Source: Squalus acanthias
Lineage: Eukaryota
DNA length: 64,000 nt
Assembly (NCBI GenBank): GCA_030390025.1
Contig: JASTWF010000499.1
Location: forward strand, 62,001 to 126,000
Direction of reading: 5' to 3'
The notes beneath the pieces are model-generated. The model made no database searches, was not told the DNA's origin, and was given only the letters and a program-made list of their open reading frames with translations. Positions within the stretch are counted from its first letter, which is position 1; the number at the start of each line of letters is the position of its first letter. Both the position numbers and the translations under genes were made by a program. Below, in pieces: positions 7,796 to 63,204 of the stretch.

Positions 7796-7877
7796 CGCGC
7801 TGTTTCAGTTCATCCCATTCCAGGCCCGGTATAGGCAGTGATCACAGTCTCTTGTTTCTGGAGTTCAGACTGGAACC

Positions 7878-8349
7878 ATGGAGGTGAAACTCTGCGTGAC
7901 TCTGGTTATTGTCCTGATCACAGGTCGGTGATATTGGAACCATCCTATAACATTCTCAAATCCCCATCTACATCTCTGGGTTATTGTTCTCTTTCTGTTA
8001 CTCCGTCTAACCCGGTGTGTGTCCACTGTTTATTTTCAGAGATGAGTAACGGAGACTCGGTGTCCCAGTCAGAACAAGGAGTCGGATCAGAAGAGGGTGC
8101 AGATTCAACAATAACCTGCAGTTATTCTGTATCGGGTTCAGCTACAAGCTATGGCCTGTTCTGGTATCGGCAGTTTCCCCACCAAGCCCCTCAGTATCTG
8201 CTCAGAGCCGATAGTTATGGGAATAACGAGACGGCTCCGGGCTTTGAACACTTCAGCGGGAATCTCAACCGGACACAAGGCACTTTTCACTTATCCATGA
8301 AAGGCTTGAAGATCGCAGACAGCGCCGTGTATTACTGTGCCCTGAGACC
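7878..8349 (+). CDS. TRAV: TCR alpha/delta V segment V3, intact
   Basis: Leader 7878-7923 MEVKLCVTLVIVLIT-G|gtcggt; V exon 8040-8349 GDSVSQ...ITCSYS...LFWYRQFPHQAPQYL...DSAVYYCALRP; Cys23, Trp41 and Cys104 present. Confidence 0.93.
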
Positions 8350-8388
8350 CACAGTGAATAAGGGACCCTCTATCCTCATACAAAAACA
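8350..8388 (+). other. 23-RSS of V3
   Basis: CACAGTG 8350-8356, 23-nt spacer, ACAAAAACA 8380-8388. Confidence 0.93.
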
Positions 8389-9143
8389 TGACACAGGTCG
8401 GCAACAAGGGTGGGCTCCGGGAGAATACCAGGGATTGAATCCCAGAGAGTTTGTCGAGGAAATAAATGTGAAAATACAGCCTGATCCGAGCGGTTTTCTC
8501 TCGTTAAATTCATTGCTGTCAGTGTTGGGATAAATGACGTCTCGCTATCATTTTAATGCAGCGTCAAATTGAGACATTTCCAGCTCCCTGTTAGCTCAGA
8601 CATGCAGATCTCTGGGATGAATAACAGGATCAATCTGTACAAGTAGATGTCCTGGATATGGTGCATATCTGCCAAGTGACATCTTTCAAAAGCGATCTAA
8701 TCTCAGAGTCGGCCTCGGGGGCGTCACACTTCCAAACTTCTGGGATTCCAGTGGTAAAACATAGTGACTGACTGAAATCAGCACTTTACTGGAACAAGTT
8801 GAGCCTCAGTGGTATCACATCCCGGTGGGACTACTTAACATGCCCGCGTGGCTTTAGGACTGTAACTATTAATGATGTTGATGGATTGGAGGGTATTCTT
8901 TAATGCCAGGGCTTGAGACTAATTTGGAATTATTTTACTTTTCACCTTAATTAGAGAGAGATCTACCTATCTATATATAGAGACATTGAGTTCCACAGAA
9001 AGAGAGACAAAGCGAGAAAGAGACAGAAAGACTGACAAAGAGACACAGGGCAAGAGAGTGAGACAGGGAGAAAGACACACAGACACTGACAGGAAAGGAA
9101 AGTGTTTGGAGAGAGCCAGGAGTAATTGGTCCTCAACTAACAC

Positions 9144-9317: not shown

Positions 9318-9755
9318 ATGTGCTCCCTATGTTCCTTACTGATAATAATGGTCGTGCTGTCCGGTGAGTCTATGTTTACAGGGTCAGTGTGTGTTCCATG
9401 GGTTATATTTACTCCAGACCTTTTGTCACATTCTTTATTTTGTTACAGGAACGAGTGGCAAAGACTCAGTGTCCCAGCATCCTTCGGAGTTAAGGGTTCA
9501 GGAAGGACAGACCATAATACTGAACTGCAGTTACTCCACATCCGAGAGCTTTCCCTATCTCTTCTGGTACATCCAATACCCCGGGGAAGCTCCGAGATAT
9601 TTACTGAAGAGATACGGCAAGGGGCAGGGGGATAAGTCTCCAGATTTCCCAGACCGGTTCTCTGCTGATTTGGAACAAGACAAGAAAGCGGTTCCTTTAA
9701 TTGTCTCCGGGGCTCTTGTCTCTGACTCCGCCGTGTATTTCTGTGCGCTGAGCCC
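9318..9755 (+). CDS. TRAV: TCR alpha/delta V segment V4, intact
   Basis: Leader 9318-9363 MCSLCSLLIIMVVLS-G|gtgagt; V exon 9449-9755 KDSVSQ...LNCSYS...LFWYIQYPGEAPRYL...DSAVYFCALSP. Confidence 0.93.
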
Positions 9756-9794
9756 CACACTGTTACAGGGGCGCAGTCAGTCCGTACAAAAACC
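9756..9794 (+). other. 23-RSS of V4
   Basis: CACACTG 9756-9762, 23-nt spacer, consensus nonamer ACAAAAACC 9786-9794. Confidence 0.93.
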
Positions 9795-10084
9795 AGCAAA
9801 GGACTCTCACTCCCTCTCACTGAATCAGATCTGGGATCTGGATTGTGATAATACAACAGAACCAAACTATAAAAATTAAACGATGGATAAATAAATCGGT
9901 GAATAGATAACTAAGTAGATAGACCGGTAGAGATATGAATACACAGTCTCCCTCTCTTAACCTCCTCTCCCAATGATCCCTTCCTCTTTGTTTGAAAGTA
10001 TCCATCCCATGGCGACAAAACCCAGCCCGTGTGAATTGCGGCTGCGGCGTCTGCGAGTGTAAAACGCGATGTGTTTCACTGCTC

Positions 10085-43227: not shown

Positions 43228-43531
43228 ATAAACAGCTACTGCAGGCGCCAGAGTTTCCTTTTAAACATGATTCAGAATTCCACAGACAGCAACTTGCACT
43301 GACCCAGTGACGCTCACCCAGAGGAGTTTCTCAGATCAAACCACAAGAGGGCCAAGGTGAATGAAGGGAGGAAGGACCAAAATTACTGCTTTAAATTCGG
43401 AGGAGCTTTTCGTGGGAAGGTGGGAAGTTATTTTGGAAGAAAGTGGCAATGAAGAAGGTAAAGGCAACTGTAAAACCCACAAACCACCTGGAATGGTGGT
43501 GGAGGAGGAACAGCTGCATCTGGAACGGTCG

Positions 43532-45570
43532 CATCGTGGCTCTGTTACTGGGCCAGTAATCCAGGGACCTGGACTAATGATCCAGAGACGTGAGTTCAAA
43601 TCCCACCACGGCAGCTGGGGAATTTAAATTCCATTCATTAAATCAATCTCTGAAATGGCCCAGCAAGCCACTCAGTTGTAACAAACCGCTACAAAAAGCA
43701 ATAAGAATAATAAAACCGGACGGCCCACCCGGCATCGACCTAGGCACCGGCTTCGGCACACCCAGCCCAGTCGACCCTGCAAAGTCCTCCTCACTAACAT
43801 CTGGGGACTTGTACCAAATTTGGGAGAGCTGTCCCACAGACTAGTCAAGCAACAGCCTGACATCGTCATACTCACAGAATCATACCTTTCAGCCAATGTC
43901 CCAGACTCCTCCATCACCATCCCTGGGTATGTCCTGTCCCACCGGCAGGACAGACCCACCAGGGGTGGCGGCACAGTGGTATACAGTCGGGAAGGAGTGG
44001 CCCTGGGAGTCCTCAACATTGACTCCGGACCCCATGAAGTCTCATGGCTTCAGGTCAAGCATGGGCAAGGAAACCTCCTGCTGATTACCACCTACCGCCC
44101 TCCCTCAGCTGATGAATCAGTGCTCCTCCATGTTGAACACCATTTAGAAGAAGCACTGAGAGTAGCAAGGGCACAGAATGGGGGACTTCAATGTCCAGCA
44201 CCAAGACTGCCTCGGTAGCACCACTACTGACCGAGCTGGCCGAGTCCTGAAGGACATACCTGCCAGACTGGGCCTGCGGCAGGTGGTGAGAGAACCAACA
44301 CGAGGGAAAACCCTACTTGACCTCGTCCTCACCAATCTACCTGTCGTAGATGCATCTGTCCATGACAGCATTGGTAGCAGTGACCAGCGCACAGCCCTTG
44401 TGGAGACGAATCCTGTCTTCACACTGAGGACACCCTCCATCGAGTTGTGTGGCACTACCACCGTGCTAAATGGGATAGATTCAGAACAGATCTAGCAGCT
44501 CAAAACTGGGCATCCATGAGGCGCTGTGGGCCATCAGCAGCAGCAGAATTATATTCCACCACAATCTGTAACCTCATGGCCTGGCATATCCCTCACTCTA
44601 CCATTACCATCAAGCCAGGGGACCAACCCTGGTTCAACGAGGAGTGCAGAAGAGCATGCCAGGAGCAGCACCACAGCGTACCTACAAATGAGGTGCCAAC
44701 CTGGGGAAGCTGCAACACAGGACTACATGCATGCTAAAAAGCGGAAGCAGCATTCTATAGACAGAGTTAAGCGATCCCACAATCAACGGATCAGATCAAA
44801 GCTCTTCAGTCCTGCCACATCCAGTCATGAATGGTGGAGGACAATTAAACAGCTAACGGGAGGAGGAGGCTCCGTGATTATCCCCATCCTCAATGATGGC
44901 AAAGCCCAGCACACGAGTGCAAAAGACAAGGCTGAAGCGTTTGCAAAAATCTTCAGCCAGAAGTGCCGATAAGAGCTGAATTCCAGAGGTGAGGTGAGAG
45001 TGTACTTGACATCAAGGCAGCATTTGACCGAGTGTGGCATGAAGGAGCCCCAGTAAAATTGGAGTCAATTGGAATCAGGGGGTAAACTCTCCACTGGCTG
45101 GAGTCATACCTAGCACAAAGGAAGATATTTGTGGTTGTTGGAAGTCAATCATCTCAGCCCCAGGACATCGCTGCAGGAGTTCTTCAGGGCAGTGTCCTAG
45201 GCCCAGCCATCTTCAGCTGCTTCATCAATGACCTTCGCTCCATCATAAGGTCAGAAGAGGGGATGTTCGCTGATGATTGCACAGTGTTCAGTTCCATTTG
45301 CAACTCCTCAGATAATGAAGCAGTCCATGCCCGTATGCAGCTCGACCTGGACGACATTCAATCTTAGGCTGATAAGTGACAGGTAACATTCGCACCACAA
45401 CAAGTGCCAGGCAATGACTAACGCCAAGAAGCGAGAGTCTAACCACCGCCCCTTACTATTAAACGGCATTACCATCGCCGAATCCCTCACCATAAACATC
45501 CGGGGCGTCACCATTGACCAGAAACTTAACTAGACCCGCCATATAAATACTGTGGCAACAAGAGCAGGTC
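43532..45570 (+). mobile_element. CR1-group LINE with a tRNA-derived 5' head followed directly by APE and partial RT
   Basis: B box GAGTTCAAATCC 43592-43603; QPDIVILTES, YRPP, GDFNV, SDQ; GVLQGSVLGP, MFADD. Confidence 0.85.
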
Positions 45571-45780
45571 GGGGGGGGGCAGATTCAGGAAAGAGTAAAT
45601 TTAAAAGCAGCGACAGAAATGACAAGGCTCGAGCGCAGAGCAGAGTTTTGGGTAAAAATAAACAGAGTGGGTCAGGAAGGGACAGAGTGAGTAACAAAGG
45701 TAATACAGCATCAGTGACTAAGGTGACATCAGGGAAAAATAGAAAAAAATCAAAGCTAAAGGCACTCTATCTGAATGCGC

Positions 45781-46593
45781 GTGGATAAATGCGAGGTTAT
45801 CCACTTTGGTGACAAAAACAGGAAGACAGATTATTATCTGAACGGCAATAGATTGGGAAAAGGGGAAGTGCAACGAGATCTGGGAGTCCTTGTGCACCAG
45901 TCGCTGAAGGTAAGCATGCAGGTGCAGCAGGCGGTTAAGAAGGCAAATGGTATGTTGGCCTTCATAGCGAGAGGATTCGAGTACAGGAGCAAGGATGTCT
46001 TGCTGCAGTTGTACAAGGCCTTGGTGAGACCACACCTTGAGTATTGTGTGCAGTTTTGGTCGCCTTATCTGAGGAAGGATGTTCTTGCCATGGAGGGAGT
46101 GCAGCGAAGATTTACCAGACTGATACCTGGGATGGCAGGAATGACGTATGAAGAGAGATTGGGTCGATTAGGCTTATATTCGCTAGAGTTTAGAAGAATG
46201 AGAGGGGATCTCATTGAAACTTATAAAATTCTAACAGGACTAGACAGACTAGATGCAGGAAGGATGTTCCCGATGGCGGGGAGTCCAGAACCAGAGGTCA
46301 CAGTCTAAGGATAAGGGGTAAGCCATTTAGGACTGAGATGAGGAGGAATTTCTTCACCCAGAGAGTGGTGAACCTGTGGAATTCTCTACCACAGAAGGCA
46401 GTTGAGGCCAATTCATTAAATATATTCAAGAAGGAGATAGATATATTTCTTAAGGCTAAAGGGATCAAGGGATATGGGGAGAAAGCAGGGACAGGGTACT
46501 GAATTTGGATGATCAGCCATGATCTCATTAAATGGCGGAGCAGGCTCGAGGGGCCGAATGGCCTACTCCTGCTCCTATCTTCTATGCTTCTAT
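45781..46593 (+). mobile_element. Nested young CR1 3' fragment
   Basis: Nearly identical to 39224-39984 and to the 30157-31358 element. Confidence 0.9.
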
Positions 46594-47325
46594 GCAACAA
46601 AGCAGATGAATTAATAGCGGAGGTAGAAATTAATAGGTTTGATCTAATAGCAATTACGGAAACGTGGTTGCAAAGTTGGGAACTAAATATTTCAGGATAC
46701 TTAACTTTTAGAAGAGATAGGCAAAATGGAAAAGGAGGAGGGGTAGCCCTGATAATAAAGGATGGGATAAAGACAGGAGAGAGAAAGGATCTTAGCTCCA
46801 AAAATCAAGAAGTAGAATCAGTTTGGGTGGAGCTAAGAAACAGCAAGGGGCAGCAAACATTGGTGGGAGTTGTTTATAGGCCCTCAAACAGTAGTTGTAA
46901 TGTAGGGCAGAGTATAAATCAGGAAATTAGAGGCACATGTAACAAGGGTAATACAGTAATCATTGGGGACTTTAATCTACATATAGACTGGGCAAACCAA
47001 ATTTGCAGTAATAGTGTGGAGGATAAATTCATGGAAATTATACAACATAGTTTTCTAGATCAGTATGTTGAGGAACCAACAAGGGAACAGGCGATTTTAG
47101 ATCTAGTATTGTGCAATGAGAAAGGGTTAATTAATAACCTTTTAATAAAGGGGCCCTTAGAGAAGAGTGACCATAATATGATAGAATTTTATATTAAGTT
47201 TGAAAGTGATTTCATTAAATCCAAAACTAGGGTCTTAAATCTAAACAAAGCAAACTACATAGGTATGAGGGGCGAGTGGGCTAAGGTAGATTGGGAAACT
47301 ACATTAAAAGGTATGACGGTAGACA

Positions 47326-48290
47326 AGGCCCAACCATCTTCAGCTGCTTCATCAATGACCTTCCCTTCATCATAACGTCAGAAGTGGGGATGTTCACTGA
47401 TGATTGCACAGTGTTCAGTGCCATTCGCAACTCCTCAGATAATGAAGCAGTCCATGCCTGCATGCAGCAAGACCTGGACGACATTCAGGCTTGGGCTGAT
47501 AAGTGGCAGGTAACATTCGCGCCACACAAGTGCCAGGCAATGACTATCTCCAGCAAACGAGCGTCTAACCACTGACCCTTGACATTCAATGGCATTACCA
47601 TCGCCGAATCCCCCACCATCAATATCCTGGGGGTCACCATTGACCAGAAACTTAACTGGACCAGCCACATAAATACTGTGGCAACAAGAGCGAGTCAGAG
47701 ACTGGGTATTCTGCGGCGAGTGTCTCACCTCCTGACTCCCCAAAGCCTTTCCCCCATCTACAAGGCACAAGTCAGGAGTGTGATGGAATACTCTCCACTT
47801 GCCTGGATGAGTTCAGCTCCAACAACACTCAAGAAGCTCGACACCATCCAAGACAAAGCAGCCCGCTTGATTGGCACCCCATCTACCACCTTAAACATTC
47901 ACTCCCTCCACCACCGGCGTACCGTGGCTGCAGTGTGTACCATCTACAAGATGCACTGCAGCAACTCGCCAAGCTTCTTCGGCAGCACCTCCCAAACCTC
48001 TACCACCGAGTAGGACAAGGGCAGCAGGCGCAGGGGAACACCACCACCTCCAAGTTCTCCTCCAATTCACACACCATCCTGACTTGGAAGTATATCAGCC
48101 GTTCCTTCATCGTCGCTGGGTCAAAATCCTGGAACTCCCTCCCTAACAGCACTGTGGGAGCACCTTCACCACACGGACTGCAGCGGTTCAAGGCGGTGGC
48201 TCACCACCACCTTCTCAAGGGTAATTAGGGATGGGCAATAAATGCTGGCCTTGCCAGCAACGCCCACATCCCATGAACAAATAAAAAAAA
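47326..48290 (+). mobile_element. Nested LINE 3' fragment (family of the 43532 element) with A-rich tail
   Basis: PTIFSCFINDLP...MFTDD...LWNSLP-like end; tail GGGATGGGCAATAAATGCTGGCCTTGCCAGC...AAAAAAAA. Confidence 0.88.
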
Positions 48291-49459
48291 GCAATGGCTA
48301 GCATTTATTTAAAGAAGTAATATATAATTTACAACAAATATACATTCCTTTAAGGCACAAAAGCCCCACAGGAAAAGTGGTCCAATCGTGGCTAACAAGA
48401 GAAGTTAAAGATAGTATTAGATCAAAGGAAGAGGCTTATAATATTGCCAAAAAGAGCAGTAAGCCTGAGGATTGGGAGGATTTTAGAATTCAGTAAAGGA
48501 GGACCAAGAAATTAATAAAGAAAGAGTAAATAGAATGAGAGTAAACTAGCGAGAGACATAAAAACAGACTGTAAAAGCTTCTCTAGGTATGTAAAAAGGA
48601 AAAGATTAGCGAAAGTAAATGTGGGTCCCTTACAGGCTGAGATTGGAGAAATTATAATGGGGAATAAGGAAATGGCAGAGAAATTAAACAAATACCTTGT
48701 GTCTGTCTTCACGGAAGAAGATGCAAAAAACCTCCCGGAAATACTGGAGAACCACGGGTCTGGTGAGAATGAGGAACTGAAAGAAATTAGTATTAGTAAA
48801 AAAATAGTACTGGAGAAATTAATGGGACTGAAAGCCGATAAATCCCCTGGACCTGATGGCCTACATCCTAGGGTTTTGAAAGAGGTGGCTATAGAGATAG
48901 TGGATGCATTGGTTGTCATCCTCCAAAATGCCATTGATTCTAGAACGGTTCCCGCAGATTGGAAGGAGGCAAATGTAACCCCACTATTTAAGAAAGGAGG
49001 GAGAGAGAAAACGGGGAACTACAGACCAGTTAGCCTGACATCAGTAGTAGGGAAAATGCTAGAATCTATTATTAAGGACCTGGTAACAGGGCACTAGAAA
49101 ATAATAATAGGATTGGGCAGAGTCAACACGGATTTATGAAAGGGAAATCGTGTTTGACAAATCTGTTCAGAGTTTTTTGAGGTTGTAACTAGTAGAATAG
49201 ATAAGGGGGAACCAGTGGATGTGCTGTATTTGGATTTTCAGAAAGCATTCGATAAGGTGCCACACAAGAGGTTATTAAACAAAATTAGGGCTCATGGGAT
49301 TGGGGGTAATATACTAGCATGGATTGAGGATTGGTTAACCGACAGAAAACAGAGAGTAGGAATAAACGGGTCATTTTCGGGTTGGCAGGCTGTAACTAGT
49401 GGGGTACTGCAAGGTTCAGTGCTTGGGCCTCAACTATTCACATCTAGATCAATGATTTG

Positions 49460-59942: not shown

Positions 59943-60533
59943 TCACTTGTGAACTCGCTGGTGTCTCAGCAGGTGGGATGAACGAGCGAATCCCTTCCCA
60001 CACACGGAGCAGGTGAACGGCCTCTCCCTAGTGTGAATTCTCTGGTGTGTCAGCAGTGTGGATGACTGAGTGAATCCCTTCCCACACACGGAGCAGGTGA
60101 ACGGCCTCTCCCCAGTGTGAACTCGCTGGTGTGTCAGCAGGTTGGATGATTTCGTGAATCCCTTCCCACACACGGAGCAGGTGAATGGCCTCTCTCCAGT
60201 GTGAAATCGCTGGTGTGCCAGCAGGTTGGATGATTTAGCGAAACCCTTCCCACACATGGAGCAGGTGAACGGCCTTTCCCCAGTGTGAGTGTGTTGGTGT
60301 ACAATGAGATTGGATGACTGCCTGAACCTCTTCCCACAGTGAGAGCAACTGAATGGTTTATCGTCAGTGTGAACTCGCTGGTGTCTCAGTAGGTGGGATG
60401 AATTAGTGAATCCCTTCCCACACATGGAGCAGGTGAACGGCCTCTCCCCGGTGTGACTGTAGCGATGAGTTTTCAGCTCAGACGGGCAATTGAATCCCTT
60501 CCCACAGTCCCCACATTTCCACGGTTTCTCCGT
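59943..60533 (-). CDS. C2H2 Kruppel-type zinc-finger protein, 7 fingers; start uncertain (ACG 60533 or ATG 60425)
   Basis: TGERPF linkers, CxxC...HxxxH x7; exon acceptor ttttacag gives exon start 60897; upstream degenerate fingers contain TGA. Confidence 0.8.
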
Positions 60534-61256
60534 GGTGCGGGTGTCATTGTGTCTCTCCAGGTTGTACGATCAGTTGAAGCCTCGTCCACACACAGAACAC
60601 GTGTACAGTTTGTCCTTGCTGTGAACGGTGCAATGTTTTTTCAGGCTGTGTAACTGGTTAAAGCTCTTTCCACAGTCAGTGCACTGGAACACTCTCACTC
60701 GGGTGTGTGTGTCTCGGTGCTTTTCCAGTCACACTGATGTTTGAAATCTTTTCCCACAGACAGAACAGGCAAACATTTCTCCTTACACATTCAAAGGTCG
60801 ATGATATTCAGGTCCTGATGAATGGAGTGACTCTGTCAGATCTTGTTGTGATGTTTGGTTTGAGTTTCCTGTCTGTAAATCCTCCCCTTCTAATACCCTG
60901 TAAAAGGAGTTTACAAAAGTCATCACTGTAAGTACAGGATAGAAATTGAGAACAGACAATTCTAGTTTCTATGGAACATTCTTTCCTCTCTTGTTCCCCC
61001 AAAGCTGTAAATCCCCGTCCCACACACTCCCTCCACCCTGTGCTGAAATCCAAACCCATCGCACCATCTTCAACATTTCTTTCCTCCACTCCCAGTTTTC
61101 TCCCTCCCTCTACTGTGGTTGGGTTCAGTTCCACACCCGCTGTGTGCAGAGTGAGAATAAAATCAATGAGTCAATGATTTTCTCTCCTGGTCACTGGGAC
61201 CCTGAAGCCCCGCCCACTCTTTGTTCCTGTACCAAAATGGCCGTACATGCGCGTAT

Positions 61257-61725
61257 GGGGTCGGTAGCATGGTGGTAATGTCACTGGACTAGTAATCCAG
61301 AGGCCTGGACTAATGATCCAGAGACGTGAGTTCAAATCCCACCACGGCAGCTGGGGAATTTAAATTCAGTTAATTCAATTGATCTGGAACAAAAAGCTAA
61401 TATCAGTAATGGTGACCATCAAACTATCGGATTGTAATATAAACTCATCTGGTTCACTAATGTCCTTTAGGGAAGGAAATCTGCTGTCCTTTCCCCGTCT
61501 GGCTTATTGGTGACTCCAGAGCCACAGCAATGTGGTTGACTCTTAACTGCCCTCTGAAATGGCCCAGCGAGTCACTCAGTTGTCACAAACCGCTACAACC
61601 TTCACCACACGGACTGCAGCGGTTCAAGAAGGCGGCTCACCACCACCTTCTCCACGGCAACTAGGGATGGGCAATAAATGCCAGCCTTGCCAGCGACGCC
61701 CACATCCCAGAAACAAATAAAAAAA
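61257..61725 (+). mobile_element. tRNA-derived SINE sharing head and tail with the 43532/47326 LINE family
   Basis: A box ~61265, B box 61328-61339; tail matches 48163-48290. Confidence 0.85.
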
Positions 61726-62480
61726 TCCCGCCCTGCCCAAGATGGCGGCCAGTGACACCACTGACCCGGGCGGCCGGGCCTGTCACCGCGGGGCGAACAC
61801 GGGGCCTGAGGCCTACACCAGGTGTTTATGGAGCTTCCCAGCCCACCCGCGGGTCCAATTCCACCTTCCGTCCCCGGGAGAAAGCCTCAAAGCCGCCGCC
61901 CCGCAGCTGGATGAACCCCGGCCCCGGGGGCTGTTATTCGGGTCTAAGGCCGCAGCCCCTTTATTATAATGATGTGGAGATGCCGGCGTTGGACTGGGGT
62001 GGACAAAAATGAGAAGTCGCACAACACCAGGTTATAGTCCAACAGATTTATTTAATTTTACAAGCTTTCGGAGCAGTTCGCTCCTTCGTCAGGTAAGTTT
62101 AGCAGTGAGAGAATCTCCCAGAATTCACAATTTAAACACAGACAAAATATATTCAAATCTTTCCCTACATCATTTATTATAAAGCCGGCCTTGTGTTTTA
62201 TTCTCCCACCGCGCCCGCATCTTCCTCCAGGCGGTCCAGGAACCCGGCTCTACTGCGCCTGCGCACTGGGGCCCCGTCACTCAGATAGGGCGTATTCCCA
62301 ACCGCGCGGCATTCTGGGTACGCACTGCCGCCATTGAGAATGTGAAGCAATTCCTGATAATTGATTCTTTATTACGCTTCAGCGGCCTGTCCTCTAAATA
62401 ATACTCTGTGTCTTGGGTGAATGGAGCGGTTGAGGAACAGAAGAGGCGCATTTGGACCAGGAAGTGAGGCGAGGAAAACA
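61726..62480. promoter_or_regulatory. CpG-island promoter (ZNF-cluster type)
   Basis: YY1 CAAGATGGCGGC 61738-61749 and GCCGCCATT ~62327; NRF1 TGCGCCTGCGCA ~62253; ETS CAGGAAGTG ~62458. Confidence 0.7.
61970..62172 (-). mobile_element. Solo PLE terminal unit with hammerhead (62058-62096), flanked by a 10-bp TSD
   Basis: TTTATTATAA at 61960-61969 and 62173-62182; internal sequence matches 10085-10250. Confidence 0.85.
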
Positions 62481-62802
62481 TTTTTTTTATTCTTTCATGG
62501 GATGTGGGCGTCACTGGCAAGGCCAGCATTTATTGCCCATCCCTAATTGCCCTTGAGAAGGTGGTGGTGAGCCGCCTTCTTGAACCGCTGCAGTCCGTGT
62601 GGTGAAGGTCCTCCCACAATGCTGTTCGGGAGGGAGTTCCAGGATTTTGACCCAGCAACAATGAAGGAACAGCGATATACTTCCAAGTCAGGATGGTGTG
62701 TGACTTGATGGGGATGGTGTTCCCATGCACCTGCTGCCCTTGTCCTTCTAGGTGGAAGAGGTCGCGGGTTTGGGAGGTGCTGCTGAAGAAGCCTTGGTGA
62801 GT
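62481..62802 (-). mobile_element. LINE 3' end (same family as 47326-48290)
   Basis: SKSWNSLPNSIVG...RFKKAAHHHLLKGN; poly-T. Confidence 0.85.
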
Positions 62803-63204
62803 TATATATTAAAAAATAACCTGGCCTTTGACCTCTGCACCACGATGACATCACAATCACTATTGCGAGCGGGCACTTTAGGGATCAGTGATAGACGTGA
62901 GGACTGTGGTTAGGGTGATACAGTCAGGGGTTGGGGTTAGGGATTACGTTAATGATTCGGGTTAGGATCTTACGGTTAGGCTACCAAGGCTAGGAGAGGC
63001 ACTCTGGAAGACATGGGGAACTGGGACTTGTCCATGAGGGTAACCAAATTTATGAGAACTTAAAAATTCTAGAGTAAGACAGGAGAAAAGGCCCAAAAAT
63101 GGAATAATCGGTAGTAGGAAATCCATTAGTCTCCTCTTATCATGGAAAACCCAAGGAATTGACACACTGTTTAAAACAAAGCTGATTTATTTGGCATATA
63201 TCCA

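Follow-up and report, generated by a model that had tools for sequence, protein, structure and literature searches.

The tRNA-headed Zenon copy and its short relative

The window analysed here is a stretch of 64,000 nucleotides from Squalus acanthias (GenBank assembly GCA_030390025.1, contig JASTWF010000499.1, positions 62,001 to 126,000 of the forward strand). At about 43.5 kb it holds a decayed copy of a shark/ray Zenon, a long interspersed nuclear element (LINE), which opens with a tRNA-like head. Comparisons with published Zenon consensuses were made over the first 400 nt of each row in Supplementary Table 2 of Stuart et al. 2026 (PMC13343379), mostly by eye. The copy starts at about 43521-43522, in agreement with the first bases of the SquAca_Zenon consensuses. 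Its head (43521-43613, plus strand), identified from Rfam RF00005, a box scan and the consensus start, has an A box at 43529-43539 and a B box at 43593-43603, with a doubled anticodon-arm-like hairpin in between. The leader that follows (43614-43693, plus strand) is a remnant from which 166 nt are gone at about 43648, and it ends in AAACCGCTACA (43683-43693). The first conserved strand of the endonuclease, CKVLLTN, begins at 43778, 85 nt past the leader end. The earlier note on this DNA was correct that no space is left for an ORF1 between the head and the open reading frame (ORF); the start it gave, 43532, has to be moved to 43521-43522.

The ORF is a single one, with Pfam matches to an apurinic/apyrimidinic (AP) endonuclease and a reverse transcriptase (RT; RVT_1). 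Its 5' part, ORF2 from 43682 to 44970 (plus strand), covers a basic leader peptide, the AP endonuclease (PF03372, E 5e-4) and a linker. Part of the RT domain follows at 44971-45565 (plus strand), the last part of this copy, after an internal deletion near 44970 of about 160-170 residues from the linker to the RT, as judged against the intact relatives P0093 and P0036. The frame is also shifted near 44178, 44424 and 44670. Absence of ORF1, which had been singled out as a notable feature, is true of this copy and unremarkable, because Zenon as a clade is without ORF1 and the trait is unrelated to the head.

The interval 43532-48290, previously taken as one LINE, is a patchwork of insertions. The head copy extends to about 45565 and is followed by a classic CR1 at 45570-47327 (plus strand), which belongs to another family (25-27% RT identity; self-BLAST and RT tree) and lies outside the Zenon element; a second, 5'-truncated CR1 is nested in it at 45781-46596 (plus strand, self-BLAST). 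Inserted in the classic CR1 is a separate 5'-truncated Zenon (47328-48290, plus strand), consisting of the C-terminal half of the RT (RVT_1, E 1e-8), a 3' hairpin and an A8 tail at 48283-48290, and the tail at 48163-48290 is part of this other insertion. The CR1 resumes at 48291, and its halves (47289-47323 and 48291-49200) are contiguous in another CR1 copy (2013-1979 and 1975-1068). These CR1 interruptions, together with the lack of any target-site duplication spanning 43532-48290, rule out a single element with its own duplication; no duplication clearly flanks the short element described below either. The head copy and the 47328-48290 piece overlap by 367 nt with 89% identity and so represent one family. 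In an RT tree of 17 rows, which holds no labelled Zenon references, the family is separate from the classic CR1s of the window, its nearest row being P0093 (44%, support 81/82). A third, 5'-truncated piece, a tail fragment found by self-BLAST, is located at 62481-62803 on the minus strand and also ends in A8. The hairpin upstream of the poly-A (48227-48275) is strong, with a folding z of -3.44 for 48165-48290 compared to -1.07 for the same tail in the short element; it is the likely recognition site of the RT.

The short element (61257-61725, plus strand) had been described as a tRNA head and body followed by a LINE tail, and this description holds in three self-BLAST blocks: the head (61262-61385 with 43526-43649, 87%, E 4e-39), the leader end (61552-61598 with 43648-43694, 94%, E 1e-14) and the tail (61598-61725 with 48162-48289, 91%, E 9e-47), which also pairs with the minus-strand piece (62609-62482, 92%). 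Its 5' part, 61257-61597, is the whole 341-nt Zenon head and leader, without gaps compared to SquAca_Zenon-1, with an A box at 61265-61275, a B box at 61329-61339 and seven ATGs in the intact leader. The 3' part, 61598-61725, is the last 128 nt of the LINE and ends in A7 (61719-61725). The 469 nt are therefore the first 341 and the last 128 nt of the LINE with the middle deleted, and include the first ORF codons (GCT ACA) and 28 codons from the ORF end; microhomology at the junction, 61597/61598, is 1 nt at most. The element is 90-92% identical to the other copies, the same range as those copies among themselves. Once both headed copies are masked, head and leader are found nowhere else in the window (best E 0.74).

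In its components the short element has a tRNA-derived head with boxes A and B and a LINE-derived 3' tail, as in SINE2 short interspersed nuclear elements (SINEs); it also has both ends from one LINE with the middle deleted, as in short internally deleted elements (SIDEs) and bipartite SINEs. Its construction is that of a SIDE and its working would be SINE-like, although its status as a SINE family is unproven. Meta, Deu and UCON3 domains were absent from the body when it was compared by eye with the alignments of PMC7245038 supplement 1, which rules out a MetaSINE, DeuSINE or UCON3 body. Motif searches of the readable files of two published supplements gave no match, and a protein search over the junction returned one weak match, in which the junction is absent. 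An origin by internal deletion, as the earlier note had it, is supported to the extent that the short element is colinear with both LINE ends as that origin predicts. The 43.5 kb copy is not the parent, because it lacks the 166 nt of leader present at 61386-61551. Both-ends sharing is present here as claimed; it is already known from bipartite elements and from SIDEs, among them the Zenon-derived Persaeus. The element lies antisense between a C2H2 zinc-finger exon (59943-60569, minus strand) and a GC-rich stretch (61730-61960) that may be the promoter or first exon of the zinc-finger gene.

The junction in shark and ray Zenons

All seven shark and ray Zenon consensuses, from five species of which one is a ray, open with the tRNA-like head followed by the leader, and all continue into the same linker, while none of the three hagfish and coelacanth consensuses has the head within its first 400 nt. 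A 15-nt leader motif occurs in six rows of Supplementary Table 2, every one a Zenon, and the head in the window is closest to the Squalus consensuses. The same junction was sought in 158 proteins, the yield of two homolog searches plus a profile search, by comparison with the leader of the short element. Leader-derived peptides precede the same endonuclease in four of them: P0003 (E 4e-7), P0006 (E 3e-7) and P0021 (E 3e-9) match mid-leader, the region deleted from the 43.5 kb copy, and P0008 matches the leader end (E 1e-4). P0005 has a weak leader match (E 0.011). The closest named protein match is from Heterodontus francisci; by this match and the closeness of the head to the Squalus consensuses, the DNA is likely that of a squalomorph-type shark. 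P0003, from Heterodontus francisci, is a public gene model that joins two V domains to a leader-linker-endonuclease piece of Zenon. The fusion is probably an artefact of annotation, and many further matches are similar chimeric gene models. No related loci were found in bacterial or archaeal genomes by protein or DNA pattern, and the ESM Atlas returned generic endonuclease clusters only.

Uniqueness of the head-ORF junction to this locus had been named as the point on which the proposal would fall. It is not unique, and on the sequences compared it is real and family-wide; that a tRNA-like head and leader are joined to a single endonuclease-RT ORF in shark and ray Zenons is almost certain. The head probably derives from a tRNA or SINE that was taken up by the element in a shark-ray ancestor.

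The LINE itself is already catalogued as Zenon, which is without ORF1, ends in poly-A and is found in elasmobranchs, coelacanth and hagfish; the elasmobranch members had not previously been deposited in repeat databases (PMC13343379). Its families have 59 to 2313 copies, with an intact ORF2 in 0 to 3 copies per family among the six families with a readable count (PMC13343379 Table 3). The longest genomic insertions in five families are 3220-3322 nt, compared to consensus lengths of 3096-3314 nt (PMC13343379). The tRNA-type 5' end and the AUG-less ORF of this catalogued element are apparently unremarked: the words 'tRNA', 'promoter' and 'polymerase' have no match in the main text of PMC13343379, where 'SINE' occurs once, inside a reference. 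No description of a tRNA-headed shark Zenon was found in the literature searched; subscription papers, Repbase Reports or Dfam may hold one.

Candidate transcription and translation of the headed element

The head matches Rfam RF00005 in both copies, with E 0.0069 at 61264-61343 and E 0.056 at 43552-43613, both under the gathering score; ARAGORN reported no tRNA genes. The A box has one and two mismatches in the two copies, and the B box none to RGTTCRANTCC. Among the consensuses, the distance from the 5' end to box A is 6-11 nt in 7/7, and box B is intact in 6/7. The boxes are thus conserved between sharks and a ray, lineages that separated roughly 250-300 million years ago. The tRNA fold of the head is not kept (z -1.3 and -0.1). 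Retention of the boxes and of the start distance while tRNA folding has been lost suggests a promoter rather than a tRNA. The arm between the boxes is doubled, at 43555-43590 and 61290-61325. In other sharks the second arm hairpin has a different sequence with the pairing retained, hinting at possible selection on RNA structure.

Runs of four or more T (T4), the terminator of RNA polymerase III (Pol III), do not occur in 2795 non-redundant nt of Zenon sense strand, compared to 31 in 11150 nt of classic CR1. The number expected is 3.9 by base composition (P 0.011) and 5.3 under uniform codon use (P 0.0025), and only one of 536 overlapping control windows was free of such runs. Phenylalanine is coded by 3 TTT and 14 TTC in Zenon. 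T4 is absent from the first 400 nt of all seven headed consensuses and present in all three headless ones. The absence is suggestive of Pol III, and transcription of the Zenon LINE by that polymerase is likely.

The intact leader has seven ATGs, and no in-frame AUG comes before the endonuclease. The first in-frame Met of the ORF in the 43.5 kb copy is at 44516, past the endonuclease. Counted from a GCT codon at 43688, the distance into the ORF is 30 nt in this copy; among the CarCar, HypSab, ScyCan and RhiTyp consensuses it is 30 nt in three and 27 nt in one. Upstream of that codon, stops or a 1-nt indel interrupt the frame. Because the spacing is mostly a multiple of three, the ORF seems to open without an AUG, at the leader end (GCT 43688) or soon after it, a position that coincides with the start of the deletion in the short element. 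Cap-independent translation of the single Zenon ORF is likely, and has a precedent in the IRES-like translation (IRES, internal ribosome entry site) of uncapped R2 and L1Tc RNA (PMC6765202).

The ATG at 43655 was at first favoured as the ORF start since P0008 begins there. It opens an 8-codon upstream ORF (43655-43681, plus strand), distinct from the ORF2 start and closed by a stop at 43679. This reading was rejected: 6/7 consensuses have a stop two codons on, in RhiTyp and SquAca-1 the ATG does not share the frame of the ORF, and P0008 itself runs through three frames. Two codons past this last conserved ATG of the leader, both window copies (43655-43675 and 61559-61579) have CAG where six consensuses have TAG, possibly the mark of a lineage-specific subfamily.

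The leader remnant also contains a hairpin with a 7-nt loop (43650-43675, plus strand), and an AGC in the loop is complementary to the in-frame GCT at 43688. The pairing would be of 3-4 bp and no covariation was seen; a possible fourth pair is lost in both window copies. The folding z of the hairpin is -1.0 in the 43.5 kb copy and +1.0 in the short element; a small GCAA-loop hairpin has a z of -1.96. In the dicistrovirus intergenic IRES a tRNA-mimic pseudoknot stands directly before a non-AUG first codon. By analogy, Pol III could make the entire 3.3-kb mRNA, a second tRNA mimic formed by the AGC loop and the GCT could load ribosomes, and deletions at the boundary could spawn SINEs, a full version which we regard as unlikely.

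The simpler mechanism, a Pol III transcript of the tRNA-headed Zenon translated by cap-independent internal entry from a non-AUG codon, we consider on balance probable, if only slightly so. The 341-nt tRNA-headed leader, which is the 5' end of the family, would be an internal Pol III promoter; TFIIIC would bind boxes A and B, and Pol III would start at the first base of the element and read through about 3.3 kb because the sense strand is without a T4 terminator. On the uncapped RNA, ribosomes would enter internally on the leader and start at a non-AUG codon, either GCT 43688 or one soon after it. The Zenon protein would then bind the 3' hairpin and poly-A, and the RNA would be retrotransposed by target-primed reverse transcription, so that every full copy would have its own promoter. 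A template jump from the leader end to the last 128 nt could have produced the 469-nt element at 61257, SINE-like from birth because head and tail were inherited together.

A number of results weigh against this mechanism. The check for T4 depletion of the sense strand, which the earlier note suggested, gives a count of zero, but the deficit weakens under stricter nulls (P 0.072 for dinucleotides, 0.29 for trinucleotides and 0.054 for the element's own codon use), and the classic CR1 control is also low (3 compared to 6.8 expected, P 0.052). The spacing after the GCT codon in SquAca_Zenon-1 is 29 nt, 1 nt off frame, and SquAca-2 and -3 are garbled after it. Folding of the leader is no better than that of shuffles (z -0.96), and no Rfam IRES or ribozyme family matched at E up to 10. 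None of the 158 proteins reaches the tRNA head, short copies could have biased the 5' ends of the consensuses, and the short element is known from one copy in the 64-kb window. SINEs are 100-700 bp long (PMC10886601), so that 3.3 kb is far beyond the usual Pol III retroelements, and autonomous and bipartite LINEs are regarded as Pol II transcripts (Kojima 2018, PMC5786205).

That last point also speaks for the strongest rival, a possibility that we rate well below the Pol III mechanism: a captured SINE head serving as, or within, a Pol II promoter, with ORF2 reached on a capped RNA by leaky scanning, reinitiation following a short upstream ORF, or frameshifting, the last out of a conserved upstream ORF (MKPDG...) in another frame, which overlaps the start of the ORF. 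SART1 and L1 ORF2 are documented cases of reinitiation (PMC5972666), and the leader offers an AUG-GCC-stop mini-ORF in 6/7 consensuses and an out-of-frame AUG in 6/7, the MKPDG AUG being where the gene models P0010, P0026 and P0065 begin. Scanning would however meet seven or more upstream AUGs, no conserved slippery heptamer was seen by eye, and the MKPDG AUG is mutated in the 43.5 kb copy. A 5' end at a set distance from box A, boxes kept from sharks to a ray and the absence of T4 also speak against Pol II.

A different question is that of direction. Instead of having arisen from the LINE by deletion, the 61257 element could belong to an older, independent SINE family from which the LINE obtained its head. 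Capture from a SINE is the simplest source of the head of this LINE, and headless Zenons exist in hagfish and coelacanth. We think this direction doubtful for the element itself, which has exactly the length of the squalomorph-type LINE head, to the base, carries the first ORF codons and the 28 ORF-end codons, and is no more distant from the other copies than they are from one another.

It is improbable that two RNAs share the work, with a Pol III RNA as template for reverse transcription and the protein supplied in trans from capped read-through or spliced host transcripts of other copies. This would explain the missing AUG start and the promoter conservation with no need for an IRES, and would suit gene predictors reaching the endonuclease only via foreign exons or copy-specific shifts. 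Selection on the ORF over shark-ray history would be hard to maintain without cis preference, and conservation of the frame begins right at the leader end. Less probable still is a head acting as an RNA processing signal, an RNase P-type cut releasing the element from longer host transcripts. It would equally set the start of the element to tRNA position +1, with a precedent in the HDV-like (hepatitis delta virus-like) ribozymes that free R2 (PMC6765202; R2/L1Tc), yet the acceptor stem and cloverleaf are lost and the boxes are better conserved than the stems. A chance SINE insertion beside a truncated LINE, or an artefact of consensus building, is hardly credible: although the locus is a nest of insertions with no spanning duplication, chance is rejected because the same junction is present in seven consensuses from five species, as it is in independent gene models including P0003 and in a raw genomic copy, and the top insertion lengths argue against chimeric consensuses.

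The standard division assigns LINEs to Pol II, as mRNAs, and SINEs to Pol III, as parasites. If the Pol III mechanism is true, a LINE lineage whose own 5' end has remained a tRNA-type promoter would break this division, provide a natural example of a long protein-coding Pol III transcript, and offer a LINE-to-SINE route in one step. Long copies of the headed lineage number in the hundreds to thousands in shark and ray genomes, where annotation will label the Zenon 5' end as SINE or tRNA. Since the AUG is missing, simple reporters can address the question of translation directly.

Elsewhere in the window there are many LINE pieces. Two V-set gene segments (7835-8533 and 9349-9879, plus strand; PF07686, E 3e-13 and 4e-16) resemble T-cell receptor alpha/delta V genes, and the window seems to border an antigen-receptor locus. 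Arrays of 27-bp tandem repeats on both strands, at about 19.5-20.3, 25.7-26.5, 32.1-34.4 and 40.5-41.3 kb, contain long spurious ORFs. A Penelope-like fragment at 17234-17959 (plus strand) has a GIY-YIG match (E 2e-4), and similar fragments lie near 2.8-3.6, 10.4-11.1 and 20.5-20.9 kb, the 10.4 kb piece without a Pfam match.

Comparison with known systems

Small-RNA-derived Pol III promoters are known in the retroelements Cassandra, Helenus and Ajax (TRIMp3; PMC10886601), as is proposed here; those are short non-autonomous LTR (long terminal repeat) elements in which translation is unneeded. R2 and L1Tc are, like Zenon, single-ORF LINEs, with uncapped RNA thought to be translated via an IRES-like 5' structure (PMC6765202). 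They differ in having HDV-like ribozyme 5' ends without a tRNA head, whereas no Rfam ribozyme match was obtained here, and R2 is co-transcribed by Pol I, unlike the Pol III proposed for Zenon.

RTE-1_DAn and elements related to it are LINEs that hold tRNA-like sequence, as here, but belong to the RTE clade and another host (PMC5786205). The bipartite RTE/Vingi SINEs (Bov-tA, AfroSINE and SINE2_Gav; PMC5786205) share with the short element the order of tRNA head, LINE 5' part and LINE 3' part. In those the head was added after the deletion and the parent LINE is headless, whereas here the autonomous parent is headed. Persaeus, a SIDE of the lepidopteran Zenon (PMC6740152), is likewise an internal deletion that keeps the 5' untranslated region (UTR) and ORF start together with the ORF end, 3' UTR and poly-A. 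It is a proven multi-copy family and has no tRNA homology or Pol III promoter, in contrast to the tRNA-headed 5' UTR here.

The closest systems are the elasmobranch Zenons themselves (SquAca_Zenon-1, CarCar_Zenon-1, HypSab_Zenon-1, RhiTyp_Zenon-1 and ScyCan_Zenon-1; Stuart et al. 2026, PMC13343379), which over their first 400 nt have the same head, leader, linker and endonuclease start. They have a single ORF, no ORF1 and a poly-A end, as here, with no difference in sequence class. The main text of that paper does not describe the head, the missing AUG or a short derivative. What is new here is the tRNA-like distance from start to box A, the absence of T4, the seven leader AUGs and the lack of an in-frame AUG before the endonuclease.

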